From an uncultured Anaerolineales bacterium (lineage in GTDB: Bacteria > Chloroflexota > Anaerolineae > Anaerolineales > UBA11858), in contig CAYFMI010000002.1 of NCBI GenBank assembly GCA_964344175.1, positions 6,350-70,349 on the forward strand: DNA of 64,000 bases, in the 5' to 3' direction. Shown here piece after piece: positions 21,355 through 49,541 of the stretch (position 1 is the stretch's first letter; the number at the start of each line of letters is the position of its first letter). The position numbers and the translations under genes are program-made. Below the pieces are notes generated by a model, which was not told the DNA's origin, did not search any database, and saw only the letters and a list, made by a program, of their open reading frames with translations.

Positions 21355-24300
21355 TCAGGGCTGTATTGCAAAAACCGCCACCACCGGATCATGATCCGAC
21401 TTGCGCAAGGGTGATTCATCGCCCGGTATGGGGAGGGCATAATCGGCGTTAAGATGCAGAATCTCCACACGGCGTAACATATCCATCAACCCCGGTGTCA
21501 CCAGAATATGATCGAGCACCTGCGACTGACCCTGGTAGATGTAGGTGTAGCGCTCCTCGGCAGAAATCGCCTCAAAAACGTGTGCCAGCCCGGCCTCCCG
21601 CAAGGTGTCAATTGGCAAGGCGTCGTAATACGAGTTCAAATCGCCCATCACTGCCAGCAAGCCATCTGCATCTTCAGCCAGAATTCCCTCCATCACGGCG
21701 ACATTCCAGGCCGCCTGCGCATTGCGGCGCGGTTCGGTGGCTTCTTCGCCGCCGCTCATCGAGGTGAAGTGGTTGTTCAACACAGAGAACGTAACTGTGC
21801 CCTGACTTGTGACAACCGCGACCTGTACCTGCAACGGCGGGCGGCTGGTAATGCCCTCGGGCGCCGGGAACTGCGCCTGATGCAGAATTTCAGCCTGATC
21901 GCCGCGCACCAAATAACCCACATCAATATAGCGGCTGTCGGTGCCCTCGATCAACACGGCCTGGTAATCGTACCCGGCCAGGGCTTCGTGCGCAGCAACA
22001 TCTTCGAGGATCTCGATATTCTCAACTTCTTGCAGCCCCACCACGGTCGGTGCGCCGGCAGCGAGAATGGTGTTTGCCACTTTGGCAACATGGATGCGGT
22101 ACTCAGCAATCGCCGGCATCGAGGGGCTGGAAGGATGCGGGTCTTTGAAGTCAAACAGGTTTTCGACATTCCAGCTCATCAGGCTAAACTCATCCTCGGC
22201 CAGCGGCTCCAGCGTGGGCAATGTTCCCTCCGTGGCAAGGATAAACGGTTGTGTGACCGGCTCCACTTTGTATTGCCCAAAGGTATACGCCAACGGGCCA
22301 ATCAAGTTACTGACCTGATCGCCGCTATTAACCGCATACGCCAGGGTCGAACGGTCGTCATGAGCCGTGGTGCTGCCATCGTCTACCACAATGGCAATCC
22401 CATTGTCGGCGCCCTGCCACAAACGCGTTGCGCCATGCTCGGCTCGCACCAGCACATACTCGCCATAACGGTTGGTCGGAGCTACCGCCACCGCTGGGCC
22501 GCTGACCTGCACAAACATGCCCTCCAGCGCTTCATAATAGGCTTCGGCGGCGGCCTGCTCCACCGGCGGGTCTAGCTCAACGGGGATGGGTAATGAATTA
22601 GCGCTGCTCAACACAACAATATCGTCCGGGCTTTCGACTTGTAATTGCGTTTGCTGATAGGCCTCGCGCACCACCCCGCTCACTTGCGCCCAGTCGCCCG
22701 GCAGAACATCCACGGTCATCTCGCCGGTATGGATGTACAAGCCATCCGACGTCAGGGGATCATAGTCCTCTTCCAGGGCCTGGATCCAAAAACCTTCCAA
22801 TTCGGGGAACACGCCGGTCACCACACCGGTGGTGGTCGCCCGATCGAAGATATACGGCGAACGCGTCCCATCCCCCTGGATCGCCCAAACCGGCACGATC
22901 TCGCCCAGAAATATCAAGTGCGCCTGGCTTTCGGCAGGCTCCGGCCCATCGGCGGCGCTGACCTGTGCCTTCTCCAGACGGATGAACTCTTCGGTGGTGA
23001 CGATCTTGGCCTGATAGCTGACAGTTGCCGATTCACCCAGCCCCTCTAACGCTGGGATCATCCACACAACTGCGTCATCCTGACGGATGCCCTCGTCGGA
23101 GATACTCTCCAGCGAAAAATCGAAACGCGGTAAGGGCGCGGTAATTTGCACATCGTGAACGGCAGCCGGGGTGTAGTTGGTGACCGTCAACTGCACATCG
23201 AAGGTTGCACCCGCCTCAATTGTGTTGGGTGCATCTACGTCAATTTGCAGCACAGGCGGGTAAACTTTTGCCAGGTCGGCCTGCAGGCGCGGGTAAACGC
23301 GCTGGGTCTGATCGGTGACCTCAACAATCCCGGTGATCTGGTACGTCTCGCCGCTCTCGATGGCTTCGACGCTGATCTCGGTGAGCTTATCAACATAGAC
23401 ACTTGCCAGATAGCCGTATTCGTCTACCAGATCGATTTCGTAGCTGTACGTAAACTCCTCCACGCGGGCTACTGTTCCCTCAGCCCGGATCAGCCTTCCG
23501 GGGAGATTCTGCAAATCGGTGGCCGCATCTTCAACGCTGACCTGCAAAGGAGGCCACGCTGTCAACTCGGAGCCGCGCCCCACAACTTCTACGCCTTCGG
23601 GGGCAGGGGCCAGCTCCATTGCCCCGCGATAAACCAGCAACAGGCCGCGCACGCGCACGCGGTCGCCCAACTGCACGTTGACGTCACCTTCACCATCATC
23701 AATCCATACCTGTAAACCGCCGGTTTCATCTTCCATGTAGAACTTTGTATTACCGCTGCCCGCATAGAGGCCGCCGGTTTGCATGGTGACAATCCCTTCG
23801 ACGATGATCTCTTCATTCGCCAGCGAACGTGCCGTACCAATCGGGATCGTCCCACCGGCCACAGCCGTGCGCGCTGCGCCGCCCATCGCCAGCAAAGCGC
23901 CGTCTTGCGCAGCGACCGCATAATTGGCCGTCGTAACCGTAAGATACGTCCAGGGCGCTTTGAGCGCAATTTCGACGCTGGCGGATGCGCCTGCATCGAG
24001 CGTGTTGACCCTCCATAAAACGACCTGATGGCTCGCGGCGAGGGTACTCATATCGAAGTAGGACGCTTGTTCGGCAAGCTCAACATCGGCAGGTAGCGTG
24101 AGGATCTCAAATTCGCTGGGAACCGGCACCTGCACCACCAGGCCTTCTGCGGCAAGAGCGCCTTCGTTGCTGACGGTCAGGGTGTAGCTAAACGTCTCGC
24201 CGGGGTTGACGGTTTCGGGAAAATCGAGACGGAGGGTGAGATCACCCGACCAGGCGGCGTTCTGAGGCCCAGGCGCATCACTGAGGGTAAAGGTTCCACC

Positions 24301-24819
24301 GGTGCGCAGCAGAGCAAGGCCATTTTCCATTGCCGGCGCGGCCTCGGTGAGGCGGTAGGCTTCTGGGCCATTGCCCCAGGCCAGCGAATCCAGCACAGTG
24401 CCATCGGCGGCACGCAGCTGCAAGCCGCCGCGCTGCGGCACAAAGGGCAGCTCGATCAGGGCATCTACGGGAACGCTATACTCTTTATCGGCACGCCCCA
24501 ATAAATAGGTGCCTCCTGGAGCTATTAAGGCATGGTCCGCCCAGCGATAGGCTAATTCTTCGTCGGCGTCATCGGAAAGTTGATACCACAACGCCGCTCC
24601 CTTAAGATCGAATGGCGCTTCCAAAGAAGGGTTGGTCAACTCGATAAATTCGTAATTATTGTCTCCTGGCATTCCGGCCAAGACCTCGCCGATCAACACC
24701 GGTGAGGTGAGGGCAATGTTACTTTCTGTTGATGTTACAGCAGGTGCGACCTCGCCCGAATTGCAGGCGGTTAACAGCAATACGACAAAAAGGATTCCGA
24801 TAACAGTTAGTTTTCGCAT
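21355..24819 (-). CDS. ExeM/NucH-type extracellular nuclease lipoprotein (lamin-tail domain + repeat domains + endonuclease/exonuclease/phosphatase domain)
   Basis: Lipobox LLLTACNS. LTD-like IGEVLAGMPGDNNYEFIELTNPS. DUF11/CARDB-like TLTVSNEG repeats. C-terminal EEP motifs SWNVENLFD, GLQEVEN, NNHFTS, GDLNS and SDHDPVVAVF. Confidence 0.8.
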   Translation of the reverse strand: MRKLTVIGILFVVLLLTACNSGEVAPAVTSTESNIALTSPVLIGEVLAGMPGDNNYEFIELTNPSLEAPFDLKGAALWYQLSDDADEELAYRWADHALIAPGGTYLLGRADKEYSVPVDALIELPFVPQRGGLQLRAADGTVLDSLAWGNGPEAYRLTEAAPAMENGLALLRTGGTFTLSDAPGPQNAAWSGDLTLRLDFPETVNPGETFSYTLTVSNEGALAAEGLVVQVPVPSEFEILTLPADVELAEQASYFDMSTLAASHQVVLWRVNTLDAGASASVEIALKAPWTYLTVTTANYAVAAQDGALLAMGGAARTAVAGGTIPIGTARSLANEEIIVEGIVTMQTGGLYAGSGNTKFYMEDETGGLQVWIDDGEGDVNVQLGDRVRVRGLLLVYRGAMELAPAPEGVEVVGRGSELTAWPPLQVSVEDAATDLQNLPGRLIRAEGTVARVEEFTYSYEIDLVDEYGYLASVYVDKLTEISVEAIESGETYQITGIVEVTDQTQRVYPRLQADLAKVYPPVLQIDVDAPNTIEAGATFDVQLTVTNYTPAAVHDVQITAPLPRFDFSLESISDEGIRQDDAVVWMIPALEGLGESATVSYQAKIVTTEEFIRLEKAQVSAADGPEPAESQAHLIFLGEIVPVWAIQGDGTRSPYIFDRATTTGVVTGVFPELEGFWIQALEEDYDPLTSDGLYIHTGEMTVDVLPGDWAQVSGVVREAYQQTQLQVESPDDIVVLSSANSLPIPVELDPPVEQAAAEAYYEALEGMFVQVSGPAVAVAPTNRYGEYVLVRAEHGATRLWQGADNGIAIVVDDGSTTAHDDRSTLAYAVNSGDQVSNLIGPLAYTFGQYKVEPVTQPFILATEGTLPTLEPLAEDEFSLMSWNVENLFDFKDPHPSSPSMPAIAEYRIHVAKVANTILAAGAPTVVGLQEVENIEILEDVAAHEALAGYDYQAVLIEGTDSRYIDVGYLVRGDQAEILHQAQFPAPEGITSRPPLQVQVAVVTSQGTVTFSVLNNHFTSMSGGEEATEPRRNAQAAWNVAVMEGILAEDADGLLAVMGDLNSYYDALPIDTLREAGLAHVFEAISAEERYTYIYQGQSQVLDHILVTPGLMDMLRRVEILHLNADYALPIPGDESPLRKSDHDPVVAVFAIQP

Positions 24820-24824
24820 CGAAT

Positions 24825-25823
24825 TTACTCCTCCAGGTTGAACTCATCGCCCCATTTGATCCCTTCGCGCGCCATGTAATAGCCGCCCAATAGCGTAATC
24901 GGCAGCCATAGGGCAATATGCAACACCAGGGTATACCCTGCGGCGATGGCGCCATCTACGCCGTAGGCTTTGAGCACGGCGATGCCGGGGGCGTCAAATG
25001 TCCCCACATAACCCGGCGCAGATGGGATGGTCGTCGCCAGATTGACAATGCCGTTCATCAGCATCAGGGCAAAGAAACTGACTTGAAAATCGAAAGCGTG
25101 CATGACAAACCAGTATTTGCCGGTCTCTAAGAGCCAGATCACCAGCGAAGTGACAAATACCATCAAGGCTTCACGGGGAGAGCGCAAAGACTCCAGGCCG
25201 CCCAAGAAACGCACCGACACCGAGAGAGCTTTCGCTCGCCAGCGCTCCGGGACGAGACGTTGAATCAATATACGCGTCAGCTTTTCGGTGGGTGTTGGGA
25301 ACATAGCCGCCAACAAAAAGAGCAGCAACACGCCCAAAAAAGCGGCTGCCCCCCACAAGGCTAGACTCTGAATGTCCCCCACAAACCCAGAATCAAATGT
25401 CAGACGGGCTAACTCCGGCAAATTCAAAAAGACAAACGACAGCATGACCACGCCATCGAAGACGCGCTCGACAATAATGGTCGCCAGCGAAGCCGAAACC
25501 GGCACTCCGGCGCGCCGTTTGAGTACCACCGCTCGCAAAATTTCTCCGGCGCGGGCCGGGTAAATGTTGTTGCCCATATAGCCAATTGCCACAATTGGGA
25601 ACATGGTGCGCGTGGACACGGCCTTAACCGGGCGCAGTAAATAATGCCAACGCCAGGCCCGCGCCCATACGCCAACAAAATACACCGCCACCCCAGGGAG
25701 CAGCCAGAAATAGCGCGCTCCGATCAGAATTTGCCACATATCAGCGAAATGTAATCCGCGTAACGCCAGGTACAAGAATAGAGCGCTGATAAACACGCCC
25801 AACCAGAATTGCCACCGTTTCAT
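24825..25823 (-). CDS. Flippase-like (LPG-synthase TM domain / UPF0104) membrane protein
   Basis: Polytopic. Features WRWHYLL, GNNIYPARAGE and a C-terminal YGVDGAIAAGYTLVLH-like segment. Start uncertain (ATG 25823 preferred, ORF extends to 25922). Stop is 5 nt from the nuclease start. Confidence 0.6.
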   Translation of the reverse strand: MKRWQFWLGVFISALFLYLALRGLHFADMWQILIGARYFWLLPGVAVYFVGVWARAWRWHYLLRPVKAVSTRTMFPIVAIGYMGNNIYPARAGEILRAVVLKRRAGVPVSASLATIIVERVFDGVVMLSFVFLNLPELARLTFDSGFVGDIQSLALWGAAAFLGVLLLFLLAAMFPTPTEKLTRILIQRLVPERWRAKALSVSVRFLGGLESLRSPREALMVFVTSLVIWLLETGKYWFVMHAFDFQVSFFALMLMNGIVNLATTIPSAPGYVGTFDAPGIAVLKAYGVDGAIAAGYTLVLHIALWLPITLLGGYYMAREGIKWGDEFNLEE

Positions 25824-26043
25824 GGGGTGGATTTTACCACCGTCGGGGAAATCACCTTGCGCGCAAATTGATTCAAGATCCGCTTTCGCGATTCGGATAA
25901 ATTTCATCCAGAATATTGTCATATCGCTTCAATGATGCCTGACACTGGACTACTGGATGAAGTACTGGCATACTTTTTATACGCTGCGACCTTGTCAAGG
26001 AAAAACCAGCGAGATACGAGAGCAAATTATTGGAGGCAGAGAA

Positions 26044-26268
26044 ATGGCGGTAAAAACCTGGGAAGTCGAGAAAGTTCATCATTGCCACCATGTTGGCAAA
26101 GAAGTCGGTTTAGAAGCTGAGGTCGTCTACCCAGCTGAGTGGTTGCCCGATCAACCGCCGCGCATCATCGGCCACCGTTGCAGTGAGGGCGTTTCGTGCA
26201 ATTTGGATGGGCGCGCAAGCTGTATGTGGGCCGGAACAAACCCAACCTACGACCCGTTTCGCGAGTAA
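26044..26268 (+). CDS. Small Cys/His-rich hypothetical protein (74 aa)
   Basis: GGAGG lies 8 nt before ATG 26044. Sequence HHCHH ... HRCSEGVSCNLDGRASC suggests metal binding. Followed by a strong hairpin. Confidence 0.45.
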   Translation: MAVKTWEVEKVHHCHHVGKEVGLEAEVVYPAEWLPDQPPRIIGHRCSEGVSCNLDGRASCMWAGTNPTYDPFRE

Positions 26269-26289: not shown

Positions 26290-26337
26290 CCAAAAAGGGA
26301 TGCAGGTGCGGCGCGCCGCACCTGCATCCCTTTTTGG
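26290..26337. terminator. Perfect 48-nt palindrome with A5/T5 runs
   Basis: CCAAAAAGGGATGCAGGTGCGGCG|CGCCGCACCTGCATCCCTTTTTGG. Confidence 0.7.
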
Positions 26338-26342
26338 ATTTA

Positions 26343-26351
26343 TGCTATACT
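26343..26351 (+). promoter_or_regulatory. Extended -10-like element TGCTATACT
   Basis: TG-n-TATACT lies 6 nt upstream of the GTG at 26358. It has the same geometry as TGCTAAAAT at 35983. Confidence 0.3.
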
Positions 26352-26357
26352 TATCGT

Positions 26358-26606
26358 GTGAATAATGACCAGCACATCTGGAAAACGTGGGCAAATAGCC
26401 TCCACCGCTGGGGGTTAGACCATGTGGTCGTAACCATTCTAGAAGCAACCGCGCCACTCCACTGGCTGGGTGCGCAGGTCATTCATGTTGGGCAGCCGTT
26501 GTTCAGTCAGGTTGCGCCGGAAAATCACGTTCTTGCATTAACAAAAATTCTCGAAAATCCTGACAAATCTCAGGCATTTATGGCCTTTCTACGGCAAAAC
26601 GCGTAA
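26358..26606 (+). CDS. Hypothetical small protein (82 aa, GTG start), possible first gene of the 26.3-34.3 kb operon
   Basis: This is the 3' part of ORF 26196..26606. The upstream part runs through the palindrome and is not credible. No motif recognised. Confidence 0.3.
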   Translation: MNNDQHIWKTWANSLHRWGLDHVVVTILEATAPLHWLGAQVIHVGQPLFSQVAPENHVLALTKILENPDKSQAFMAFLRQNA

Positions 26607-26641
26607 CTCCTAGATTCTGCAATTACCGGAGGTAGCTTACA

Positions 26642-27424
26642 GTGACCTTTGCTGGTCTCATCGGCCTGGTTTTCATTCTGGCTTTTTTTGGACTAATCAT
26701 CCTCTTCAGCGTTGCCCGCCGTGACGGGGCAGGTGCAAAGCTGCGCCCCATCGCAGCGTTCATAAAATTACGGCGCGCCATTGGCCTGGCTGTTGAAGCA
26801 GGGTCGCGGCTGCACATCAGCATTGGGCGCGGCAACCTTACGGGGACCGAAAGCGCGGCTGCATTTGCCGGTTTAAGCGCCCTGAAAGGCATGATCCACT
26901 CGGCCTCCTCGGGCGACAATCCCCCCGTCGCCACCACCGGCGACGCGTCCCTCTCTATCCTTACCCGCGACACCATCAGCGGCACTTACCGCGAAATTGG
27001 CATTAGCGAACAGTATCACCCCAATAGCGGTCAGCTAACCGGCATGACGCCCTTCTCATATGCTGCGGGGACATTGCCGCTCGTTGAAGATCCCAAAACA
27101 ACGACACATATTTTATTGGGGCATTTTGGCAACGAAGTCGCGCTAATAAGCGATGCCGGTCAGCGCAGCGGCGACCTTACCCTGGCGGGAACCGACAACC
27201 TGCCCGCCCAAGCCATCCTGTATGCCACCGCTCAAGAGCCGCTGATTGGCGAAGAAGTTTACGCCAGCGGGGCCTATATTCAGGAAAACGCCATGCACAT
27301 TGCCAGCCTACGCGCTCAAGATGTCATCCGTTGGCTGTTGGCAGCCATTATTCTCGGAGGAATTGCGCTAAAATTCGCCGGATTAGATAACCTCTTCAAT
27401 AGCCTGTTGGAGGGGCTGCTGTGA
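26642..27424 (+). CDS. Membrane protein with N- and C-terminal TM segments, unknown function
   Basis: GTG start with GGAGG 9 nt upstream. N-terminal TM FAGLIGLVFILAFFGLIILF, a domain of about 200 aa, then C-terminal TM WLLAAIILGGIAL. Confidence 0.65.
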   Translation: MTFAGLIGLVFILAFFGLIILFSVARRDGAGAKLRPIAAFIKLRRAIGLAVEAGSRLHISIGRGNLTGTESAAAFAGLSALKGMIHSASSGDNPPVATTGDASLSILTRDTISGTYREIGISEQYHPNSGQLTGMTPFSYAAGTLPLVEDPKTTTHILLGHFGNEVALISDAGQRSGDLTLAGTDNLPAQAILYATAQEPLIGEEVYASGAYIQENAMHIASLRAQDVIRWLLAAIILGGIALKFAGLDNLFNSLLEGLL

Positions 27425-28086
27425 ATCTCAAGTTGAAATCGCCTGTCTCCACGGCCATGGCTATCGGCGTTGGGTTGGTCGTTCTGCTGGGCTATTTCTT
27501 CGGCAGCGATGCCGCCGGCAGCCTAACTCCGTTGGGCATACTGCGCAACTATTTCTTACAAGGGGCCATCATCTGGGCCGCGGTGGCATTGATCGTTGGC
27601 ATTGCTAATCTGGCATCGGTTCACTTAAACTACATTCGCCAAAACACAGGCGGGGGGTATAGCTTCATTCTACTGCTCGCTCTCATTGTCACCATCGGTG
27701 TGGGCCTTTACGACATCTTGCAAACGCATTTCAATCAGGAACTTAACTTCCAGCGTATGCGCTGGGTTTTCGACTACATCCAACTGCCCATCGAAACCAG
27801 CCTGATGGCCGTCCTGGCCATCAGCCTGACCTATGCCGCCGCCCGCCTGCTGGCCCGCAGGCTTAATTTGCTCTCGGTGGTCTTTGTGGGCGTAGTGCTG
27901 TTATTGTTGGTTGGCGCAGCTCCACAAATTGCCGCCCAGGCTCCCCTGCTGGCCGACATCCGCAATTGGATCTTGCAAGTTCCCACCCTGGCCGGGGCAC
28001 GCGGCATTTTGCTGGGCGTTGCGCTGGGGACTATCGCCACCGGCATTCGTATTCTGACCGGCAGCGACCGGCCGTATGGGGGTTAG
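27421..28086 (+). CDS. Polytopic membrane protein, unknown function
   Basis: GTGA start/stop overlap with the preceding gene. About six hydrophobic segments. Confidence 0.65.
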   Translation: MNLKLKSPVSTAMAIGVGLVVLLGYFFGSDAAGSLTPLGILRNYFLQGAIIWAAVALIVGIANLASVHLNYIRQNTGGGYSFILLLALIVTIGVGLYDILQTHFNQELNFQRMRWVFDYIQLPIETSLMAVLAISLTYAAARLLARRLNLLSVVFVGVVLLLLVGAAPQIAAQAPLLADIRNWILQVPTLAGARGILLGVALGTIATGIRILTGSDRPYGG

Positions 28087-28089
28087 CCA

Positions 28090-30213
28090 ATGAGCGAAAT
28101 CCGTTGCCCCATGTGCGGGAAAGATAATCCCAAAACTTTAGACCACTGCCAACACTGTCAGGCTCGTCTGACTCCGTTGATTATGTCGCCGGAGGATGAT
28201 AACGGTCTGCCCGACTGGATGCAGGATACCGGCGATGAGGCTGCGCATCAAGAACCCCAGACATCTCCTGAAGAATCAGATCCCGCAGATTGGCTGAACC
28301 AACTCAGAGGGGAGGAGGCTGCTGACCCCTTTGAGGCCATTCCCCCCGAGGATGAGCCAGCCCCTGGCCCCGAACCCGAGGACGATTGGCTGGGGCGACT
28401 CAGCGCCCTTAGCAGTGAGGTTAGCGCGCCCGATGAGGAGGGTGATGCGCCCGAAGATACCTGGCTGGATGGCGAAATCCCAGAGTGGATGAAACTTGAA
28501 GAGCAGGACGAACCCTTTAGCGAGGAACCCGCTGCAACCGCAGAAGATGCTCTGCCCGACTGGCTTGCCGAACCCGCTGCCTCGCCGGAAGAATCGCCCC
28601 CCCCGGCGGAAGAAGGTTTACCTGACTGGTTCCTTGACACCGCCGATGCGGCCCCCTCGGAGGCTGCCCCCTCCCCCGAGGCTCCGGCTCTCAGCCCCGA
28701 GGGCGATAGCGAACTGCCTGCCTGGATGTCTGAAACTCCTGACGCCGAAGATGACGGCATCCCCGATTGGATATCCGGCGTCGAGGATGATGATGTTGAA
28801 ATCCCCATCATCTTGCCGGATCCTCAGCCAGAGATCCCCGACTGGAGCGCCAACCTGGAAGACGACGCCCCAGCAAGCAGCCCTTCAGACGAAGAACCCG
28901 ATTGGCTAGAAAAACTGGGGGCCGGAGAACCCGGTGATTTCACCCCCCAGGGCGAGGAACTCCCAGCGGCCTTACTGGATGACGATGCGTTTAAGCTTGA
29001 CGAATTAACCGACCTTTTCGCCCGCGATACCGAGGATGCCCCGCCCGAACCTGGAGAAATCGACGACAGCCTGGCTCCTGCGGAACTGCCCGGCTGGTTG
29101 GAGGCCATGCGCCCGGTCGAAAGCACATCCGAAGATCAAACCAGCCCGGCAGATCAAGGGCCAACCATCCAAACTGGGCCTCTGGCAGGGTTAAGCGGCG
29201 TACTCATGGCCGAGCCAGAAATCGCCCGCCTGAAAAAAGCGCCCACCTTCTCATCAAAACTCAATGTCTCAGCCACCCAGCAGCAGCATGTCAAACTATT
29301 GCGCGATTTGATCGCGTCGGAAGGCGTGCCCCTTCAAAGAACAGAGCCAATTCTCGTGTCTTCACAAGGATTGTTAAGGTGGATTATTGCCTTCTTATTG
29401 ATCTTGGCAGTGGGATTAGCCGTTATTACAGAAGGGCAGTTTGTCCCCTTGCCTGCGTTAGAATCGGTTCCTCCGCAGGTGATGGGGGCCAGTCAATTAA
29501 TCGAAACTTTGGCCCCGCAAGATCCCGTCTTATTAGCTTTCGACTATGAACCCGGAACCGCAGGCGAGATGAGCGCCGCTGCGGCTGCGGTTGTCGATCA
29601 TATCATGCTCAAGGGTGCTTATCTTACGCTGGTATCCACCTCCCCTACCGGTCCAGCGTTGGCCGAGAATTTCTTCCGCACAACCCAATGGGCGCATAAC
29701 TACACCAGCGGAATCCAATATATTAATTTAGGCTATATCCCCGGCGGCGCATCGGGGCTATTGGGTTTCGCGCAGATTCCACAGCGCATTACGCCCCTGG
29801 CTTTCGACGGCCTGGAAGCCTGGAAAACGATGCCCCTCAGCCGCATATCCACGCTCTCTGACTTCGAGATGGTTGTTATCATCACCGATAACCCAGATAT
29901 TGCCCGCACCTGGATCGAGCAAGTGCAGCCCGCCTTGCCCAGCACCCCAATGATCGCCGTTGCCAGCGCCCAAGCCGAGCCTATCCTGCGCCCTTATAGC
30001 GGCGGCCAAGATCCGCAACTGGATGGCCTGGTGGGGGGGATTACCGGCGGTGCAGCCTATGAACAAGTGACCGGCAAAACACATTTAGCCCGTCAATATT
30101 GGGACGCTCTCAACTATGGGCTGCTGACCGCCGCAGCCGCAATCCTGATCGGCGGATTGGTTAACCTGGTTTCTATTTTCCTTACAAAATCAGGCAAAGG
30201 GGAGGCCTCATGA
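28090..30213 (+). CDS. Zn-ribbon protein with an acidic PDW-repeat region, a TM segment, an ~230-aa domain and a terminal TM segment
   Basis: N-terminal CPMCGKDNPKTLDHCQHCQARL. Twelve [LIE]P[DEAG]W[LMFIS]-type motifs lie between aa 40 and 337 in a Glu/Asp/Pro-rich region. TM segments at about aa 428-446 and aa 680-700. Confidence 0.8.
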   Translation: MSEIRCPMCGKDNPKTLDHCQHCQARLTPLIMSPEDDNGLPDWMQDTGDEAAHQEPQTSPEESDPADWLNQLRGEEAADPFEAIPPEDEPAPGPEPEDDWLGRLSALSSEVSAPDEEGDAPEDTWLDGEIPEWMKLEEQDEPFSEEPAATAEDALPDWLAEPAASPEESPPPAEEGLPDWFLDTADAAPSEAAPSPEAPALSPEGDSELPAWMSETPDAEDDGIPDWISGVEDDDVEIPIILPDPQPEIPDWSANLEDDAPASSPSDEEPDWLEKLGAGEPGDFTPQGEELPAALLDDDAFKLDELTDLFARDTEDAPPEPGEIDDSLAPAELPGWLEAMRPVESTSEDQTSPADQGPTIQTGPLAGLSGVLMAEPEIARLKKAPTFSSKLNVSATQQQHVKLLRDLIASEGVPLQRTEPILVSSQGLLRWIIAFLLILAVGLAVITEGQFVPLPALESVPPQVMGASQLIETLAPQDPVLLAFDYEPGTAGEMSAAAAAVVDHIMLKGAYLTLVSTSPTGPALAENFFRTTQWAHNYTSGIQYINLGYIPGGASGLLGFAQIPQRITPLAFDGLEAWKTMPLSRISTLSDFEMVVIITDNPDIARTWIEQVQPALPSTPMIAVASAQAEPILRPYSGGQDPQLDGLVGGITGGAAYEQVTGKTHLARQYWDALNYGLLTAAAAILIGGLVNLVSIFLTKSGKGEAS

Positions 30214-30887
30214 ATATCGACGCGTTGACTCTGGCCGACCTGAGCGGAACTCTGCTGGGATTTGTGTTAACTTTGTTTATTCTCAGTTATGTGATGGGCG
30301 ATAATGCCCTCTTCCGGCTGGCGACGCACATATTCGTCGGGGTGGCGGCTGGTTATGCAACCATCGTCACCCTGTACAATGTCATTTTGCCGCATATGGT
30401 TTTCCCTATTTTAGACGGCGGAAAAAGCGACACGTTCCTGGCGGTTAGTTTCCTTATTCCCAGTCTGTTAATTTTAGCCAAGTTATCGCCCCGCTTGAGC
30501 AAGCTGGGCAACCCTGCCGTGGCGATCTTGGTAGGCATTGGCGCAGCGGCAGCCATCGGCGGTGCGGTAACCGGAACATTGTTCCCGCAAACATCCGCCG
30601 CGATTGGCATATTCGAAACCAACAATTTTGTAGATGGTGTCGTGATAGTCATCGGCACACTGAGTACACTACTATTTTTCCAATTTTCAACCCCCAAAGA
30701 CACCCAACGCGCCAGGCTGATGCCGCAAGTGATGCGCGTCTTGCGCTGGGTGGGCAAAGTTTTTGTTGCGATTACTTTTGGGGCGCTATTTACCGGCGTG
30801 TACATTGCCGCGCTGACAGCGTTGATCGAGCGCTTCACCTACCTGTGGAATATCTTCAAAGAGCTGGTTCTTCCGGCCCTGATGTAA
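30210..30887 (+). CDS. Polytopic membrane protein, unknown function
   Basis: ATGA overlap with the preceding gene. 225 aa with 6-7 hydrophobic segments. Confidence 0.65.
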   Translation: MNIDALTLADLSGTLLGFVLTLFILSYVMGDNALFRLATHIFVGVAAGYATIVTLYNVILPHMVFPILDGGKSDTFLAVSFLIPSLLILAKLSPRLSKLGNPAVAILVGIGAAAAIGGAVTGTLFPQTSAAIGIFETNNFVDGVVIVIGTLSTLLFFQFSTPKDTQRARLMPQVMRVLRWVGKVFVAITFGALFTGVYIAALTALIERFTYLWNIFKELVLPALM

Positions 30888-30894
30888 TAACTCT

Positions 30895-32649
30895 ATGATG
30901 TCTTCTATCGTTGTCACCGATACAATTCTCACGATCGATGTGGGCACCATCAACACCCGCGCCGCTTTGTTCGATGTGGTTGGCGCGCAGTATCGCTTCA
31001 TTGCTTCCAGCACTGCGCCCACGACCATCGCCCCGCCCTTTAATGATGTCCGCGAAGGTGTGGTGCGCGCCGTCAGTGAGTTGCAGACCCTCACCGGGCG
31101 AGTGCTTGTGGGCACCGATGGCACCTTGCTCATCCCCAGCCATCCCGATGGCTCTGGGGTAGACGCTGTTGCCGCGACGCTTTCAGCCGGGCCAGACATC
31201 AGAGTTGTTGCGGTTGGGCTGCTTGAAGATATCTCGCTAGAAAGCGCCCGCAATTTAGCCACTACCACCTATGCAGCCGTCACCGAGACACTCAGCATCA
31301 ATGATCGCCACAAACAAGATGCCCGCATCGACACCATTTTGCGCGCCCGCCCCGACCTCATCATCATTGCCGGTGGCATCGATAACGGGGCAACCCAATC
31401 TGTTTTCAACCTGCTTGAAGCAGTAGGGCTGGCTTGCTTTTTGATGCCGCGCTCCCAGCGGCCACAGATCCTCTTCGCCGGAAACAGCCAGATTCGCGAA
31501 ACGATTAAAGAGACTATCGCTCCGATCACCGATGTGCACATCGCGCCCAATGTGCGTCCCGTTATCCACAGCGAAGAACTGGCCCCGGCTCAGGTTCAAC
31601 TCGCCAAGATCTTTAAAAATATTCGCGCCCAACAAATGTTTGGGGTCTCCGACCTCGACCAATGGAGCGAAGGCCGCCTCATGCCCTCATCGACAGGGTT
31701 TGGGCGTATAACACGTTTCCTCAGCCAGATTTACGATCCATCCAAAGGCGTATTGGGCGTCGATGTGGGTGCATCATCCACAACGATTGCTTGCGCGCTG
31801 CAAGGACAATTGGCTTTACGCGTTTTTCCGCAACTCGGCCTGGGAACAAAACTCAACAATCTCACTCACTATATCCCCCTGGAATTGATCACCCGCTGGC
31901 TCTCCGAAGAAATTCCTGACGCAACGGTTCGAGACTATTTGCAAAACAAAGCGGTCTATCCGGCAAGCTTACCGATCACGCCCGAAGAACTGGACATCGA
32001 GCAAGCCATCACCCGCCAAATTTTGCGCACGGCCGTACACAGTACTATCTCGGCGCTGCCCTTCGAACTGAGAAGCGCCGGGGATGCGTTCCTGCCCTGG
32101 CTGGAGCCGATCCTGGCATCGGGCGGGGCGCTTAGCCTGGCTCCCACCCCTGGGCAAAGCCTGTTGATGCTGCTGGACGGGTTGCAGCCGGTCGGTGTTA
32201 CAACCATTGTCTTAGACCAAAATAACCTCCTGGCTCCGCTGGGCGCTGCAGCGGAAATCAACCCGTTAATGGTCGTGCAAACGCTCGAATCACACGCCTT
32301 TCTCAATCTAGGAACAATCATTGCTCCGGTAGGCAGATCGCGGCAGGGATCGACTGTTTTACGCGTACGGGCGACCTTTGAAGATGGTAGCGATACGAAG
32401 TTCGATGTGAAGTACGGTTCCATCGAGATCATACCGCTCCCGGCGGGGCAGTCTGCACAATTACATTTGCAGCCGTTGCACCGCTTCGATATCGGCATGG
32501 GCGCCCCTGGCCGCAGTGGGCGCGTGCGCGTGGTAGGCGGCGCGTTGGGCATCATCATCGATGCGCGCGGCCGCCCCCTTAACTTGCCTCAGGACCCCGG
32601 CCGACGCCGCGAAATCATCAAACGCTGGCTTTGGGCACTGGGCAATTAA
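30895..32649 (+). CDS. Actin-fold (ASKHA) ATPase-like protein, GlmL(MutL)/EutA-like
   Basis: Motifs ILTIDVGTINTRAALFD (phosphate-1-like), IIIAGGIDNGATQ, a second lobe VLGVDVGASSTTIACA, and ILASGGALSLAP. 584 aa. Confidence 0.6.
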   Translation: MMSSIVVTDTILTIDVGTINTRAALFDVVGAQYRFIASSTAPTTIAPPFNDVREGVVRAVSELQTLTGRVLVGTDGTLLIPSHPDGSGVDAVAATLSAGPDIRVVAVGLLEDISLESARNLATTTYAAVTETLSINDRHKQDARIDTILRARPDLIIIAGGIDNGATQSVFNLLEAVGLACFLMPRSQRPQILFAGNSQIRETIKETIAPITDVHIAPNVRPVIHSEELAPAQVQLAKIFKNIRAQQMFGVSDLDQWSEGRLMPSSTGFGRITRFLSQIYDPSKGVLGVDVGASSTTIACALQGQLALRVFPQLGLGTKLNNLTHYIPLELITRWLSEEIPDATVRDYLQNKAVYPASLPITPEELDIEQAITRQILRTAVHSTISALPFELRSAGDAFLPWLEPILASGGALSLAPTPGQSLLMLLDGLQPVGVTTIVLDQNNLLAPLGAAAEINPLMVVQTLESHAFLNLGTIIAPVGRSRQGSTVLRVRATFEDGSDTKFDVKYGSIEIIPLPAGQSAQLHLQPLHRFDIGMGAPGRSGRVRVVGGALGIIIDARGRPLNLPQDPGRRREIIKRWLWALGN

Positions 32650-32684
32650 CTGGCATTGAACTTGCATCTAAGAAGAAGATAACC

Positions 32685-33743
32685 ATGTTAGCGCCTGTCA
32701 TCCAAATCAACTCGATCACCAAGATTCGCCGCCACCGCGAACTTCCCATCCCCGGAAACGTTATCGTCCGGCAAGGGCAGAAAGTTGAAGCGCGCGACAT
32801 TATCGCTGAGACCATCTTAGCCCCTGAACACATCTTGCTCAATATCGCTCGCAGCCTGAATGTTTCGACCGAACGGGCCGATGATCTCATCCAACACACC
32901 GCTGGCGAAGCTGTCAACCAAGACGACCTCATCGCCGGGCCGGTGGGCCTCACCCAACGAGTAGTACGGGCGCCGCGCCCCGGGAAAATTGTCGTCGCCG
33001 GCGACGGCCTGGTACTCATGGAAGTCAGCAGTACACCCCATGAAATCCGCGCCGGAATGCCGGGAACGATCACCGATTTGATCCCCGATCGCGGCGCAGT
33101 CATTCAATGCACCGGCGCGCTGGTGCAGGGCGTCTGGGGAAACGGCCTCACCGAATTTGGCGTGATGCAATCGAAAATCAAATCCCCCGACGATCAACTC
33201 GTCAGTGAAGATCTGGATGTCAGCCTGCGCGGCGCAATCATCCTGGGCGGGCACTGCGCTGATGCGCATGTTTTCCAGAAAGCTGCCGAGATTCCCTTGC
33301 GGGGCCTGATTCTGGCTAGTATGTCTTCCGCGCTCATTCCCAGAGCGCTTAAGGCTCACTTCCCTGTACTTGTTTTAGAGGGATTTGGCTACCACCCTTT
33401 GAACGCAATAGGCTATAATGTACTCACAACCAACAACGGCAGGGAAATTTCGCTCAATGCGGAACCGTTCGACCATTACAAGGGGATTCGCCCCGAGGTC
33501 GTCATCCCGCTAGATGTAGCCCGAGAGCCAGAGGACATTAGCCTCTCGGTAGAAGACTTCGCACCCGGCCAAAAAGTCCGCATTGTACGCAACCCGCACG
33601 CTGGCGCGACGGGCACAATTGTAGCCCTATCGCAAGGACCCATGCGCTTTCCAAATGGCATCCGGGCACGTGGCGCAGAGATTGAAATGGCCGAGGACCA
33701 GCAAATACCTATCCCCCTGGTCAACCTGGAGCGAGTAGTCTAG
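32685..33743 (+). CDS. Hypothetical soluble protein with barrel-sandwich-like N-terminus and KOW/SH3-like C-terminus
   Basis: Start set to ATG 32685. Motifs GNVIVRQGQKVEARDIIAE and GQKVRIVRNPHAGATGTIVAL. No TM segment. Confidence 0.55.
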   Translation: MLAPVIQINSITKIRRHRELPIPGNVIVRQGQKVEARDIIAETILAPEHILLNIARSLNVSTERADDLIQHTAGEAVNQDDLIAGPVGLTQRVVRAPRPGKIVVAGDGLVLMEVSSTPHEIRAGMPGTITDLIPDRGAVIQCTGALVQGVWGNGLTEFGVMQSKIKSPDDQLVSEDLDVSLRGAIILGGHCADAHVFQKAAEIPLRGLILASMSSALIPRALKAHFPVLVLEGFGYHPLNAIGYNVLTTNNGREISLNAEPFDHYKGIRPEVVIPLDVAREPEDISLSVEDFAPGQKVRIVRNPHAGATGTIVALSQGPMRFPNGIRARGAEIEMAEDQQIPIPLVNLERVV

Positions 33744-33793
33744 GCAATTGTAGTTCTGCTATTTATGCGGATATTGTATGAGGAGATAGCAAC

Positions 33794-34333
33794 ATGACAA
33801 TGATGGATGATTTTGATTTTGATGATATCGAAATGGAAGAAGGCCCTCCCCCCGAGGAAGCTAGCAATCGCACTTTTTTGTTGGTGGCCGGTATTCTCGG
33901 AGCGATTCTAATCTTGTCATTGATCCTCATGGCGGTCTATGCTATGGTTGTCGTTCCCCAACGGCGTGCCGCGCAAAACACGCAGGTAGCCTTAGCCAGC
34001 GGCCTGACAGCCGAAGCCCAGTCGTGGACAGCTACCCCGACCATCACCCGCACTCCCTTGCCAATGACGGCCACGCCCAGCCCCACACTGGTTCTCGCCC
34101 CTACCGACACGCCTGCCGCGGGTCTGGCGCAAGACCGCAACGATCAGCTTACGGCTACAATGGCAGCCTTGTTCACCCAGCAGGCGGCTAACCTGCTCAC
34201 CGTAACCCCGCTGGCCACCGAGTTACCCAGCACGGGCTTCGCCGATGATATCGGGTTACCGGGCATGCTCTCATTGGCTGGTGCGTTAATACTCATTATT
34301 TTCTTTGCCAGGCGCTTGCGAACGGCGCGCTAG
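33794..34333 (+). CDS. Small Thr/Pro-rich protein with C-terminal LPXTG sorting signal
   Basis: GAGGAG SD. LPSTG (nt 34223..34237), then hydrophobic MLSLAGALILIIFFA, then RRLRTAR. The N-terminus is strongly acidic and precedes a single TM segment. Confidence 0.7.
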   Translation: MTMMDDFDFDDIEMEEGPPPEEASNRTFLLVAGILGAILILSLILMAVYAMVVVPQRRAAQNTQVALASGLTAEAQSWTATPTITRTPLPMTATPSPTLVLAPTDTPAAGLAQDRNDQLTATMAALFTQQAANLLTVTPLATELPSTGFADDIGLPGMLSLAGALILIIFFARRLRTAR

Positions 34334-34354: not shown

Positions 34355-34386
34355 AAAAAAGGTCTGAGTGACACTCAGACCTTTTT
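34355..34386. terminator. Bidirectional intrinsic terminator between convergent genes
   Basis: AAAAAA-GGTCTGAGTG-A-CACTCAGACC-TTTTT, between the stops at 34333 (+) and 34391 (-). Confidence 0.8.
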
Positions 34387-34390
34387 GTTT

Positions 34391-35851
34391 TTAGGTCACG
34401 CTGGCAGCGACTTCTTCACCATATTGCAGCAAGGCCGCTACCATTGCTTCACTGCGCCCTTCAGCATATACCCGTAGCACCGGTTCTGTCCCCGACGGAC
34501 GAATCAGCAGCCAGGAATCATCACTCATTATATACTTTACGCCATCAATCGTCAGCACTTCGCCGACATCTTCACCGCCAATCGCATCGGGCGCTTCATT
34601 CATCAAGTGCAAGGTCATCTTTTCTTTGGCAACCGGGCGGTTGAGGCGCAAATCTCTCCGTTCATAAAATGCCGGGCCAAATTCTTTTAACAGATCATCC
34701 ACCAGTTCGTGCAACGGCGTCCCCAGGGCAGCCACCATTTCGACCAGCAGCAGCCCCATGAGGGTGCCATCCCCTTCGGGGATATTGCCGCGGAACGAAA
34801 TCCCACCCGATTCTTCCCCGCCAATCAACACATCTTCTTTGAGCATATAATCGGCAATATGATTGAAGCCAACCGGGGTCTCGTAAACGGGGAGGTCGTA
34901 ACGTTCGGCCAGGCGGTCGATCATGCGCGTGGTCGAGACCGTACGCACCACCGGGCCACGCCAACCGCGCGCCTCCACCAAGTAGCGCATTGCCAACGCC
35001 ATAATTTTATGCGGATCAACAAAGTTGCTGCGCCCATCCATGGCGCCAATCCGGTCGGCGTCACCATCGGTAGCCAGACCTAAATCGCCCAGCCCATTGC
35101 TGATCGCGCCCGCCAAAGCCCCCAGATTGCGGCCAATTGGCTCCGGGTGTGTCCCGCCAAAACCGGGATTCATTTCGCCGCGAATTTCATACACTTCGCA
35201 GCCGGTTCCTTTGAGAATCCCCTTGATGACTTCGCGCCCCGAACCGTGCATCGAATCGACGGCCACGCGTGGAGGGCGCTCGGCGATCTTATCGAAATCG
35301 ATCAACGTGCGGAGATGATCGTAATAGGCAGGAATCGGGTTAAAGCGCTCGATCAAGCCCACTCGCCGCGCCTGATCCCAATCCATCATATTCGGGCCGC
35401 GGCCGCGTTCCTCATTATCGTTGAGATAGACTTCTACCCGCCGCGCCTGCTCCGGCAGCGCTGATCCTCCATAGGCGGCTTTCAGCTTGATACCGTTATA
35501 GCGCGGCGCATTGTGCGAAGCGGTAATCACTGCTCCTGCTATGGCCCCTAAATGACGCACAGCATACGAGATGGCTGGCGTTGGGGCATCGGATTGCGAG
35601 AGGAATACCGTATAGCCGTTAGCGGCTAAAACGCGCGCCACATCGGCGGCGTACCGGTCCGAGAGAAAGCGAGTATCGAACCCCACGACAACCTTACGCG
35701 GGTCCACACTGCGTCCCGATGACGTTACCGTTTGCCAATCGCCCGAATTGATGGCATCGGCAATGGCCTGAGTCACCAGCCGCAAATTATGAAAAGTAAA
35801 GGTATCCGAAATAACGGCCCGCCACCCGTCGGTTCCAAAATGAATGGGCAT
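34391..35851 (-). CDS. Phosphoglucomutase/phosphomannomutase (alpha-D-phosphohexomutase family)
   Basis: Active-site TASHNAPRYNGIK, metal loop GLATDGDADR, sugar loop GGEESGG. Confidence 0.9.
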   Translation of the reverse strand: MPIHFGTDGWRAVISDTFTFHNLRLVTQAIADAINSGDWQTVTSSGRSVDPRKVVVGFDTRFLSDRYAADVARVLAANGYTVFLSQSDAPTPAISYAVRHLGAIAGAVITASHNAPRYNGIKLKAAYGGSALPEQARRVEVYLNDNEERGRGPNMMDWDQARRVGLIERFNPIPAYYDHLRTLIDFDKIAERPPRVAVDSMHGSGREVIKGILKGTGCEVYEIRGEMNPGFGGTHPEPIGRNLGALAGAISNGLGDLGLATDGDADRIGAMDGRSNFVDPHKIMALAMRYLVEARGWRGPVVRTVSTTRMIDRLAERYDLPVYETPVGFNHIADYMLKEDVLIGGEESGGISFRGNIPEGDGTLMGLLLVEMVAALGTPLHELVDDLLKEFGPAFYERRDLRLNRPVAKEKMTLHLMNEAPDAIGGEDVGEVLTIDGVKYIMSDDSWLLIRPSGTEPVLRVYAEGRSEAMVAALLQYGEEVAASVT

Positions 35852-35982: not shown

Positions 35983-35991
35983 TGCTAAAAT
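35983..35991 (+). promoter_or_regulatory. Extended -10-like element TGCTAAAAT, 6 nt upstream of the ATG at 35998
   Basis: TG-n-TAAAAT. No SD between it and the start codon, which is compatible with a leaderless or near-leaderless transcript. Confidence 0.3.
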
Positions 35992-35997
35992 GGGATT

Positions 35998-37662
35998 ATG
36001 TTGCCAGAAATTGAAAATCGAGTTGCGTTATTAAAACGTGTGCTCATCTTCAACGAGTTGGAAGATGAAGAATTAGCTAGCGTAGCCGAACGGCTGAAAA
36101 CAGAGCACTTTCCCGCCGGGGAGGTTATCTTTCAACAAGAAGATCTTGCAGACCGCATGTATATTCTCAACCGAGGAGAAGTGTATGTCGCCCGCGATGT
36201 AGATGGAGGTTCTGAAACGACCCTGACAGTTCTCAGCAAGGGCGACTCATTCGGCACCGATGCACTCTATAAAAAACGGCCGCGTTTGGCTACGGTTGGC
36301 GCCCACCGAGACAGCCACCTTTTCTATCTCGATACAGCAGATTTCCAATGGCTGCGGGACTCTTTCCCCCAAATTGATCCTTATTTACTGGCATTCAGCA
36401 AAACACACGACGCCGTTCGCCGCCTGAATTTATCCTGGCTTGGCGAGGGCGAAACCATCAGCCTGATTGCCCGGCGGCACCCCATCCGCATGATTGGCGA
36501 AATTCTGATCACTGCGCTGGTTGTCTTCTTCGTGCTGACACTTGTTTTGGGGGCTAATACCCTGCTGTCTCCAGAAAGAACCATCACCTTCATCGCTCTC
36601 GGCTTATGCGGATTTGTAACCCTCATTGGCTTTGTCATTGGCATTTGGTCATTTCTAGATTGGCGCAACGACTACTTTTTCATCACCAATGCCCGCGTGG
36701 TTTGGCGCGAACGCATTTTGCTGCGTTCTGCCAGCCGTCAGGAGATCCCTTTGCGCACCATCCAATCGCTGGATATCCAAACATCCAGCGTGGTGGCGCG
36801 CATGATCCACGTTGGCGATCTCATCATCAAAACTTTCAATAGCCAGATGATGCTCACAGATGTTTACTATCCCGAGCGTATGAAGAGCATGATTAATGGC
36901 TTTTTACGGAAGGTCGCTGCGATCAAACGCAAAGAAGAACTCGCCGCCATTCGGCAGACAATCCGAGGACGTCTAGGCTACCCAACAGAACACATCCAAT
37001 CCGAAATTCCTGAGGATATTCCCTCCGCCGAGACCAAGCGCCCGGTGCGTTTTTCGCTTTTTAAAACCCGCCTGGTCGATGACAACAACACCATCACCTA
37101 TCGCAAACACTGGCTCATCTTCCTCGGGAAAGCCTGGCTGCCATCGTCATTATTGCTGCTCATTACTCTGCTCTCGCCGCTGACTTTGCCGCACATCATC
37201 CAGGGAAATGCGGTCATCCGTATTTCGGCCACCCTGTTGTTTTTGAGCATCTTCTTTTGGTGGCTATATCAATACGAAGATTGGCGCAATGACATTTACC
37301 GCATAACCAAAGACCGCATCATCGACCGTGAAAAAAGCCCCCTCGGGGCCGAATCGTTCCGCTCTGCACCCATCCGCAGCATTCAAAGCGTCGGGCACGA
37401 AATCCCAAGCACTATTGGGCTGATCGTAAATGTTGGCAACGTCCGCATCAATGTAGGCGACGAAACCCTTTCTTTCGACGGCGTCCATAACCCGGCTCTG
37501 GTTCATCAGGATATTTCGAGACGCATGGAGACATTCCAGGCGCAACTCGAAGAAAATCGCCGCAAAGATGAGCACAATCGCATGGCAACCTGGCTCGAAA
37601 TCTACCACGAAGAAACCGGCAGCGATGGCTCTCTTCCAGATCACATTCCTGATTTTTATTAA
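35998..37662 (+). CDS. Cyclic-nucleotide-binding domain protein fused to a YdbT-like membrane module (two bPH/DUF304-type repeats)
   Basis: N-terminal cNMP-binding-like segment (FNELEDEEL...GEVIFQQEDLADRMYILNRGEV...GDSFG). It is followed by two TM hairpins, each followed by a WRNDYFFITN / WRNDIYRITKDRI segment. Confidence 0.7.
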   Translation: MLPEIENRVALLKRVLIFNELEDEELASVAERLKTEHFPAGEVIFQQEDLADRMYILNRGEVYVARDVDGGSETTLTVLSKGDSFGTDALYKKRPRLATVGAHRDSHLFYLDTADFQWLRDSFPQIDPYLLAFSKTHDAVRRLNLSWLGEGETISLIARRHPIRMIGEILITALVVFFVLTLVLGANTLLSPERTITFIALGLCGFVTLIGFVIGIWSFLDWRNDYFFITNARVVWRERILLRSASRQEIPLRTIQSLDIQTSSVVARMIHVGDLIIKTFNSQMMLTDVYYPERMKSMINGFLRKVAAIKRKEELAAIRQTIRGRLGYPTEHIQSEIPEDIPSAETKRPVRFSLFKTRLVDDNNTITYRKHWLIFLGKAWLPSSLLLLITLLSPLTLPHIIQGNAVIRISATLLFLSIFFWWLYQYEDWRNDIYRITKDRIIDREKSPLGAESFRSAPIRSIQSVGHEIPSTIGLIVNVGNVRINVGDETLSFDGVHNPALVHQDISRRMETFQAQLEENRRKDEHNRMATWLEIYHEETGSDGSLPDHIPDFY

Positions 37663-49392: not shown

Positions 49393-49541
49393 GGGATTCT
49401 CTCCTGAGAGAGGCAAATGGATAGATGGCACTACCCAGGTTTCAGCGTGGATACTTCCATTATACCCGTGGATTTTTAATACCCACAAAATAAATGATGT
49501 GTGCTTGCGAGCGAAGCTAGTACTCGGTTAGATAGATTATT

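Follow-up and report, generated by a model that had tools for sequence, protein, structure and literature searches.

The described systems that come closest to the locus analysed here are the GlmL/MutL proteins (PF13941, TIGR01319) together with the B12-enzyme reactivases, the PilM-PilN, FtsA-FtsN and MreB-RodZ pairs, the chaperones Hsp70/DnaK and Hsp110 and, for one small component, TonB, GltJ/GltG of Myxococcus gliding and LPXTG substrates. The locus itself is a block of eight co-directional genes, g1 to g8, at 26358-34333 on the + strand of a 64,000-nucleotide (nt) stretch of DNA from an uncultured Anaerolineales bacterium (contig CAYFMI010000002.1, positions 6,350 to 70,349; this whole stretch is referred to as the window). 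The eight-gene block is one operon, and its architecture matches no described cellular machine.

With GlmL/MutL and the B12-enzyme reactivases the operon shares an ATPase, g6, whose N-terminal 466 residues give a full-length match to this family and carry the ASKHA (actin/Hsp70-fold) fold and its nucleotide motifs; g6 differs from these proteins in its length of 584 amino acids (aa), which takes in an additional conserved beta domain and a terminal helix, and in being set among membrane-protein genes. With PilM-PilN, FtsA-FtsN and MreB-RodZ it shares an ASKHA gene that adjoins one for a membrane protein with a cytoplasmic N-terminal tail, a transmembrane (TM) segment and an outside domain (here g4), and PilM, including the PilM:PilN1-12 structure, and FtsA are among the best Foldseek matches of g6. 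However, no operon product has sequence homology to PilN/O, FtsN, RodZ or MreC/D, and docking of the ATPase is putative in this case; moreover, the g4 tail consists of a Zn ribbon and 3-13 repeated Trp-acidic motifs rather than a single peptide, and the cluster contains no pilins, secretion ATPases or wall synthases. Products g1-g5, g7 and g8 gave no Pfam or NCBIfam match to PilN, PilO, pilin or PilB-type families. Hsp70/DnaK and Hsp110 are among the top Foldseek matches of g6 and have the same succession of a nucleotide-binding domain, a beta-rich domain and a C-terminal helix, but the TM-scores lie near 0.25, Pfam gives no match to Hsp70, and the cluster encodes neither a J-protein nor GrpE. 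Finally, g8 recalls TonB, GltJ/GltG and LPXTG substrates in its short cytoplasmic tail, TM segment, Pro/Thr spacer and distal anchor, this anchor being an LPxTG signal and not the TonB-C domain; the Zn ribbon that lies within GltJ itself is here carried by g4. No homologues of ExbB/D, TolQ/R or AglRQS were found, and MotA_ExbB was absent from the per-member Pfam scans. A previous reading of this DNA, made from the sequence only (hereafter the sequence-only reading), had not recognized the gene combination as any characterized system, and indeed no match that would place it was obtained in Pfam, NCBIfam, PADLOC, PDB sequence and profile searches, Foldseek or the literature; full-text searches on DUF6754, PF13941, TIGR01319 or GlmL together with ASKHA turned up no paper on this cluster.

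The eight open reading frames (ORFs) appear in the mechanical ORF list exactly where they had previously been placed. Gene g1 (26358..26606) encodes 82 aa and is the GTG-started part of a longer mechanical ORF; g2 (26642..27424) encodes a DUF6754 membrane protein, g3 (27421..28086) and g5 (30210..30887) each a six-TM membrane protein, g4 (28090..30213) a protein with a Zn ribbon, an acidic tail and two TM segments, g6 (30895..32649) the 584-aa ASKHA ATPase, g7 (32685..33743) a soluble protein of 352 aa and g8 (33794..34333) an LPxTG protein. The tight packing described in the sequence-only reading was likewise found, as the start of g3 overlaps the stop of g2 (GTGA at 27421) and that of g5 overlaps the stop of g4 (ATGA at 30210), both by 4 nt, and the remaining gaps measure 3-50 nt. 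Boxes of the Shine-Dalgarno type (GGAGG or GGGG) lie ahead of g2, g3, g4, g5 and g8, and the ATG at 32685 taken as the start of g7 agrees with orthologues of 351-352 aa that begin with MLAP. The GC content of the block (0.54-0.58) equals that of the rest of the window.

This arrangement is conserved in related genomes. In a scan with one genome per species, at least 571 confirmed stretches encode a relative; the best 80 loci were kept, and the resulting locus set comprises 80 Anaerolineae species genomes, each locus from a different assembly with one locus apiece, plus two metagenome contigs. Wherever the contig was long enough, tblastn with the window proteins as queries detected each of the eight genes, with order and strand unchanged, and the complete set was recovered after ORF extraction in 61 of the 64 sufficiently long loci. 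The three incomplete loci have technical explanations: the missing gene of L023 was lost at ORF extraction yet detected by tblastn, g8 went undetected in L079, and the seeming lack of g1-g5 in L062 was rejected as a true exception, a run of N (9902-10000) directly upstream of g6 being a scaffolding gap. The latter locus sits in the 'chromosome' CP070785.1, a metagenome-assembled genome (MAG). Spacing is conserved as well, with the 4-nt overlap of g2 and g3 kept in 67/68 loci and median distances of -4 nt for g1/g2 and g4/g5, 3 nt for g3/g4, 7 nt for g5/g6 and about 50 nt each for g6/g7 and g7/g8.

Beyond this set, relatives are numerous, with 1,615 for g6 at E <= 1e-5 and 1,925 for g7 at E <= 1e-3; among the matches listed, the lengths of g6 (584 aa) and g7 (351-352 aa) are near-invariant, and all named sources are Anaerolineales, Anaerolineae or Chloroflexota MAGs. 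An exhaustive search of 1.84 billion cluster representatives returned 2,140 g6 relatives, 643 of them below 1e-30; the best 150 of the 2,140 reach down to 32% identity, and nearly all full-length ones among these measure about 560-670 aa, indicating that they carry the C-terminal extension. Four distant members, with 32-37% identity in the ATPase, show the same order on their contigs (a small gene, DUF6754, about 205 aa, 726-1102 aa, about 215 aa, the ATPase, about 350 aa and a final gene), the homology of each gene being confirmed by tblastn. Those distant members that bear a name are assigned to Aggregatilineales, Bellilinea or 'Chloroflexota bacterium', and the named sources together cover two orders, Anaerolineales and Aggregatilineales. 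Homologues are therefore strictly co-localized in other genomes; the sequence-only reading had named the opposite, along with profile matches to a characterized system, as what would speak against it, and neither was found. Since the upstream neighbours differ from locus to locus, the eight genes are kept together as a unit; in addition, the native GC content and the lack of any significant match to the PADLOC-DB v2 defence models fit with a core, vertically inherited function. Taken together, these facts point to an operon that is vertically inherited, single-copy and class-wide in Anaerolineae (Chloroflexota).

A further conserved element lies immediately ahead of the operon. When the DNA upstream of g1 was aligned for eight loci, the sole conserved block was TATGCTATACTT, directly before the start codon; in the window, the 9-mer TGCTATACT at 26343..26351 (+ strand), which is of the extended -10 class TGnTATAAT, stands 6 nt upstream of the GTG of g1 (26358). 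This 9-mer is present 5' of g1 in 63/67 loci, where the hexamer mostly stands 6-7 nt from the initiating ATG or GTG, and of its 67 copies on both strands of 1.5 Mb of locus DNA all but 3 are at the g1 site. Transcription of the sigma-70 type starts about 7 nt past the -10 hexamer, so that with the spacing found here the transcript would begin at or next to the start codon, and the g1-g8 transcript is therefore probably leaderless. The order and the invariant promoter, retained over at least 571 stretches and two orders, make a core task likely. In one locus (L010, 2426-2500), tandem repeats of the GGTCGG(T/C) type occur upstream of the g1 promoter box.

Two hairpins bound the block, and both had been reported before. 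At 26290..26337, a perfect palindrome of 48 nt, flanked by A and T runs, resembles a terminator and ends 5 nt before the -10 box, and an A-run/stem/T-run hairpin resembling a bidirectional intrinsic terminator (34356..34386) separates g8 from a convergent PGM/PMM gene. The presence of the two stands, but the palindrome is not an element of the operon: it follows the stop (26268) of an unrelated small ORF and is thus read as the terminator of that ORF, marking the 5' boundary of the operon and insulating it without being part of it. The conserved upstream signal is the 9-nt extended -10 box instead. Rfam gave no match anywhere in the window, and a riboswitch or other RNA element was rejected on these grounds.

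Residues 1-466 of the ATPase g6 (30895..32292) form an ASKHA nucleotide-binding domain that meets the MutL/GlmL profile PF13941 at 2.4e-64 (218 bits against a cut-off of 27), with residues 11-466 aligned to profile positions 1-448 of 450, and the nucleotide-binding residues are conserved (D15/G17/T21 in phosphate-1, D290/G292/T297 in phosphate-2, and G410). An AlphaFold2 model from a 75-sequence alignment (predicted local distance difference test, pLDDT, 93.4; predicted TM-score, pTM, 0.92) comprises a two-lobed ASKHA domain, a beta-rich domain at 470-557 and a terminal helix at 568-581; the previous description of g6 as an actin-fold ATPase of the GlmL type holds at the level of the family. 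The family-specific C-terminal part (residues 470-581, 32302..32637) lies beyond the end of the Pfam profile at 466 and contains invariant D556, R558 and P561 (IDARGRPL), followed by a conserved basic/Trp helix, RRRExxKKWLWTLG, in which W578 is invariant. The Foldseek neighbours of g6 include the beta subunits of hydantoinase and acetone carboxylase, Hsp70/Hsp110/DnaK, FtsA and PilM (also PilM with a PilN peptide), and PDB sequence and profile searches returned no match. The best NCBIfam matches are GlmL and a GlmL-related ornithine-degradation protein; g6 was rejected as a GlmL equivalog, with 87 bits against the 475-bit cut-off of NF040745 and with no mutase or B12-binding genes nearby, glutamate mutase S/E families being absent among the called neighbours of L001, L002, L087 and L088 and in the window flanks. 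The protein is predicted to be cytoplasmic. Some distant relatives (P0346, P0372, P0377 and P0387, of 658-735 aa; L088 10001-12010) bear an extra C-terminal extension of 80-150 aa that is charged, of low complexity and acidic-hydrophobic at its end (e.g. DVLSRL, LRNVLS, EELLRS); this end may be another short linear motif.

In g4, residues 1-29 (28090..28176) form a zinc ribbon, CPxCGK...CxxCQA, which yields weak Zn-ribbon Pfam matches and is conserved in orthologues with a correctly called start. Residues 30-420 (28177..29349) make up an acidic tail, expected to be disordered, with 12 ΦP(D/E)WΦ motifs; residues 1-425 contain 108 D+E and 18 K+R, and all 12 Trp of this region stand in an (L/I/P)P(D/E/x)W(L/M/I/F) context. 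The 12 PDW repeats listed in the sequence-only reading are thus present as motifs, with an exact PDW in 6/12. Orthologues of g4 keep 3-13 copies of the motif while the remaining tail is divergent, and a comparison of the tail region with 5.8 billion proteins returned g4 orthologues only, whereby other protein architectures bearing a PDWL tail were discarded. It is a reasonable inference, by analogy with the systems introduced above, that the Zn-ribbon/PDW tail may recruit g6. Residues 428-696 (29371..30177) comprise TM1, a domain of about 225 aa and TM2, followed by a basic tail; the two TM segments previously proposed were confirmed by TM prediction, and positive-inside counts predict the inter-TM domain, which has no Pfam or PDB relative, to be extracytoplasmic. 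That g2 and g4 have related C-termini, as had been suspected, was not borne out, as BLASTP found nothing significant and hhalign gave a probability of 12% over a TM stretch only, with TM2 of g2 paired with TM1 of g4; positive-inside counts also place the two domains on opposite sides of the membrane, that of g2 in the cytoplasm and that of g4 outside.

Together with g4, the products g2, g3 and g5 are predicted to be integral membrane proteins. The match of g2 to PF20539 (DUF6754) has an E-value of 7e-28 and 97.9 bits against a gathering score of 27, and the orthologues in L001, L002, L085, L087 and L088 are likewise annotated DUF6754. In g2, TM segments at 6-24 and 228-246 enclose an alpha/beta-looking domain of about 200 aa; the mean K+R counts around the two TM segments (0 / 4.0 / 1.4 / 0 in 67 orthologues) indicate by the positive-inside rule that this soluble domain faces the cytoplasm, where it is accordingly predicted to reside. 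Both g3 and g5 have six predicted TM helices with conserved polar residues at helix ends, g3 having a conserved C-terminal G-x-DRPYGG motif, and per-member Pfam scans and PDB profile searches gave no family for g3 and no consistent one for g5. A role of g5 as a MotA/ExbB-like stator was rejected (the lone PADLOC ZorA/MotA match, at E = 0.034, was judged to be due to chance and was not reproduced in 39 orthologues), as was paralogy of g3 and g5 or of other pairs (hhalign probabilities <=1.2%). The small g1 product, predicted to be cytoplasmic, has conserved Trp residues and no Pfam or NCBIfam match; its orthologue occurs in 67 loci at 29-52% identity and is invariably the first gene of the cluster. 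In all, only g2 and g6 fall in any family, and six of the eight products have no family assignment.

The product of g7 is predicted to be cytoplasmic. It ends in a KOW/SH3-like barrel (Foldseek matches to the KOW domains of Spt5/NusG and a weak Pfam KOW match), its centre is a well-predicted alpha/beta domain with weak matches to RraA/AF_0055 swivel-type folds, and its N-terminal part is poorly predicted, barrel-sandwich-like at low confidence, with a weak Pfam Biotin_lipoyl match. Of the soluble protein with a KOW-like C-terminus and a barrel-sandwich segment that had been described, the KOW-like end holds and the barrel-sandwich signal is weak. An RnfC/NqrA-like subunit and a B12-binding domain were dismissed, neither being among the top 50 Foldseek matches and no DxHxxG being seen by eye. 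In g8, an acidic N-terminal tail ending in PPPEESxNRTF is followed by a TM helix, a Pro/Thr-rich spacer, LPxTG, a hydrophobic segment and a basic tail; the LPXTG ending previously noticed corresponds to LPSTG at 34223-34237 (residues 144-148), hydrophobic residues 153-171 and RRLRTAR. The signal (L/I/M)PxTG-FADDVGxPG...ARRLRTA is conserved in most of 74 orthologues, and 45/60 match the TIGR01167 LPXTG_anchor profile at E <= 1, the best at 7e-5. These features suggest that g8 is a putative sortase-anchored membrane-to-wall strap. All 60 of 60 orthologues also weakly match the NCBIfam GltJ profile through the TM and Pro-rich segment (best 1.8e-5); homology to GltJ was rejected, the matches (15.8 bits against a cut-off of 450) being probably compositional.

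The facts point to a membrane complex of several subunits that has parts in the cytoplasm, in the membrane and outside it, and the two proposals of the sequence-only reading, that of a hetero-oligomeric membrane complex and that of an uncharacterized, conserved membrane/ATPase operon, both stand, as does its pointer to Chloroflexota. As to what such a complex does, we infer its function from architecture alone, and the possibility put first here, to which we give somewhat less than an even chance, is an ATPase-coupled membrane-to-wall complex that serves growth of the envelope, septation or the integrity of the filament. In such a complex, g2-g5 would form the membrane core, and the Zn ribbon and acidic ΦP(D/E)WΦ tail of g4 would act as a multivalent tether that concentrates g6 and/or the adaptor g7 at the membrane, akin to the way in which PilN, FtsN and RodZ peptides dock PilM, FtsA and MreB; the terminal basic/Trp helix of g6 might in addition bind the membrane or a partner. 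As g6 opens and closes, driven by ATP, the core would relay this movement to the g4 domain on the outside and to the g8 strap, whose LPxTG would be joined covalently to the wall by a sortase while its N-terminal TM helix is still in the membrane. The overall task would be a housekeeping one, in envelope growth, septation or the mechanical integrity of thin multicellular filaments.

Several observations weigh against this proposal. The GlmL/MutL family is linked to B12-enzyme reactivation rather than to envelope machines, and the Foldseek matches of g6, with E-values of 1e-11 to 1e-7, reach TM-scores of only 0.3-0.47, meaning that no solved structure is close and that the likeness to FtsA and PilM is at the level of the general fold only. 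As regards the strap, the g8 of the window itself scores under the TIGR01167 cut-off (10.8 against 15.9 bits), its N-terminal topology is ambiguous by charge counts, and no ORF of the 64-kb window contains the sortase motif TLxTC. The AlphaFold2 model of the suggested adaptor g7 is middling (pLDDT 72.5). Finally, the related Litorilinea divides by FtsZ according to the literature; a division machine operating without FtsZ was rejected, the literature giving no support for Anaerolineae that lack it.

The alternative that survives best, which we nevertheless regard as unlikely, is that g6 acts, like its GlmL/MutL and EutA/DdrA-type relatives, as an ATP-driven chaperone or reactivase. It would remodel an enzyme or channel that g2-g5 form in the membrane, assembling, repairing or gating it, without any force being passed to the wall and with g8 as a substrate or accessory only. 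This would account for the fact that PF13941 is the sole family of g6 and that its best NCBIfam relatives are GlmL-type, and for the Hsp70-like succession of nucleotide-binding and beta domains, full-length DnaK and Hsp110 being among the Foldseek matches. However, a score of 87 against 475 bits is far from that of a true GlmL, no mutase or B12-binding gene lies in the listed neighbourhoods, and no catalytic or cofactor motif was recognized in g2-g5 or g7.

Improbable, in our estimate, is a cytoskeletal role in which g6 polymerizes on the membrane like FtsA, MreB or ParM and the membrane proteins position wall synthesis or septation. The nearest folds of g6 do include FtsA and PilM, its terminal basic/hydrophobic helix is of the kind that serves as a membrane-targeting sequence, and the composition of the operon resembles mreBCD plus rodZ, with an actin fold, bitopic proteins and small polytopic proteins; on the other hand, the TM-scores are low, no product matches MreC, MreD, RodZ, FtsA or PilN/O in Pfam, and we know of no member of the GlmL/MutL family that polymerizes. 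Transport or secretion, in which the ASKHA ATPase would energize a core that exports or imports a surface protein (g8, for example), a polymer or a lipid-linked sugar, is more improbable again. Two six-TM and two hairpin membrane proteins beside an ATPase would suit such a system, as would the conserved convergent PGM/PMM gene found downstream in 49/64 loci, but this gene is on the other strand and past a terminator, no transporter family was found for g3 or g5 even in per-member scans, and to our knowledge no ASKHA-driven transporter has been described. That the genes form no functional unit, being fortuitously linked or part of a mobile element or defence island, is suggested by nothing more than the lack of annotation and has practically no probability left, as it is refuted by synteny: order, spacing and promoter are conserved in at least 80 species, down to 32% ATPase identity, with one locus per assembly in 80 assemblies, no PADLOC hits and a native base composition.

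The fuller version of the membrane-to-wall proposal, that of an undescribed class-wide envelope machine in which an Hsp70/FtsA-like ATPase sits on the multivalent Trp-acidic motifs of a Zn-ribbon membrane scaffold and acts through a novel membrane core on a strap joined covalently to the wall, is more doubtful and is offered tentatively. If correct, it would be a new way for a monoderm-like filamentous bacterium to couple the hydrolysis of ATP in its cytoplasm to its cell wall, and the machine would serve morphogenesis, septal integrity or surface movement. The operon itself takes the GlmL/MutL branch of the actin/Hsp70 superfamily, otherwise one of soluble B12-enzyme helpers, into a membrane-associated setting. 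In sediments, digesters and activated sludge, Anaerolineae count among the filamentous bacteria of highest abundance, and their cell biology is barely known. Both the ΦPDWΦ short linear motif and the candidate membrane-to-wall strap are directly testable; one of the 80 kept loci (L070) belongs to a MAG labelled Anaerolinea thermophila, a species with a cultured type strain, and experiments should therefore be feasible.

Of the neighbouring genes, one is a candidate for association with the operon. At 35998..37662 (+ strand), Pfam identifies a membrane protein with a cNMP-binding and a bacterial PH domain, and in 53/64 loci this gene shares the strand of g8 and lies no more than 2.6 kb from it; in 7 it comes directly after g8, including L070, the locus labelled Anaerolinea thermophila. 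It has its own extended -10 box, TGTGCTAAAAT at 35983, 6 nt ahead of the ATG, and thus too appears to be leaderless. The protein could be a regulator or a ninth component, its membership being uncertain. Between it and g8 lies, convergent to the latter, the gene of a PGM/PMM-family sugar-phosphate mutase (34391-35851, - strand; Pfam), which occurs within 600 nt of g8 in 49/64 loci with 72-87% identity between loci, so that the downstream flank is conserved whereas the upstream one is not. The small upstream ORF that ends just ahead of the palindrome (26044-26268, + strand) encodes a Cys/His-rich protein of 74 aa with no Pfam family; its relatives occur in only 4/82 loci, which places it outside the operon.

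Elsewhere in the window, the GC skew in 2-kb bins is negative where genes are on the + strand (e.g. 26-40 kb) and positive from about 42 kb, where the long ORFs are nearly all on the - strand; it thus tracks the coding strand, on which C exceeds G, and does not mark a replication origin. The largest ORF of the window, at 43411-49488 (- strand), encodes 2025 aa. Upstream of the operon, a 1154-aa protein with lamin-tail, DUF11 and endonuclease/exonuclease/phosphatase domains is encoded at 21355-24819 (- strand), and a 365-aa membrane protein of the LPG_synthase_TM family at 24825-25922 (- strand) recurs on the upstream side of the operon in 5 related loci.

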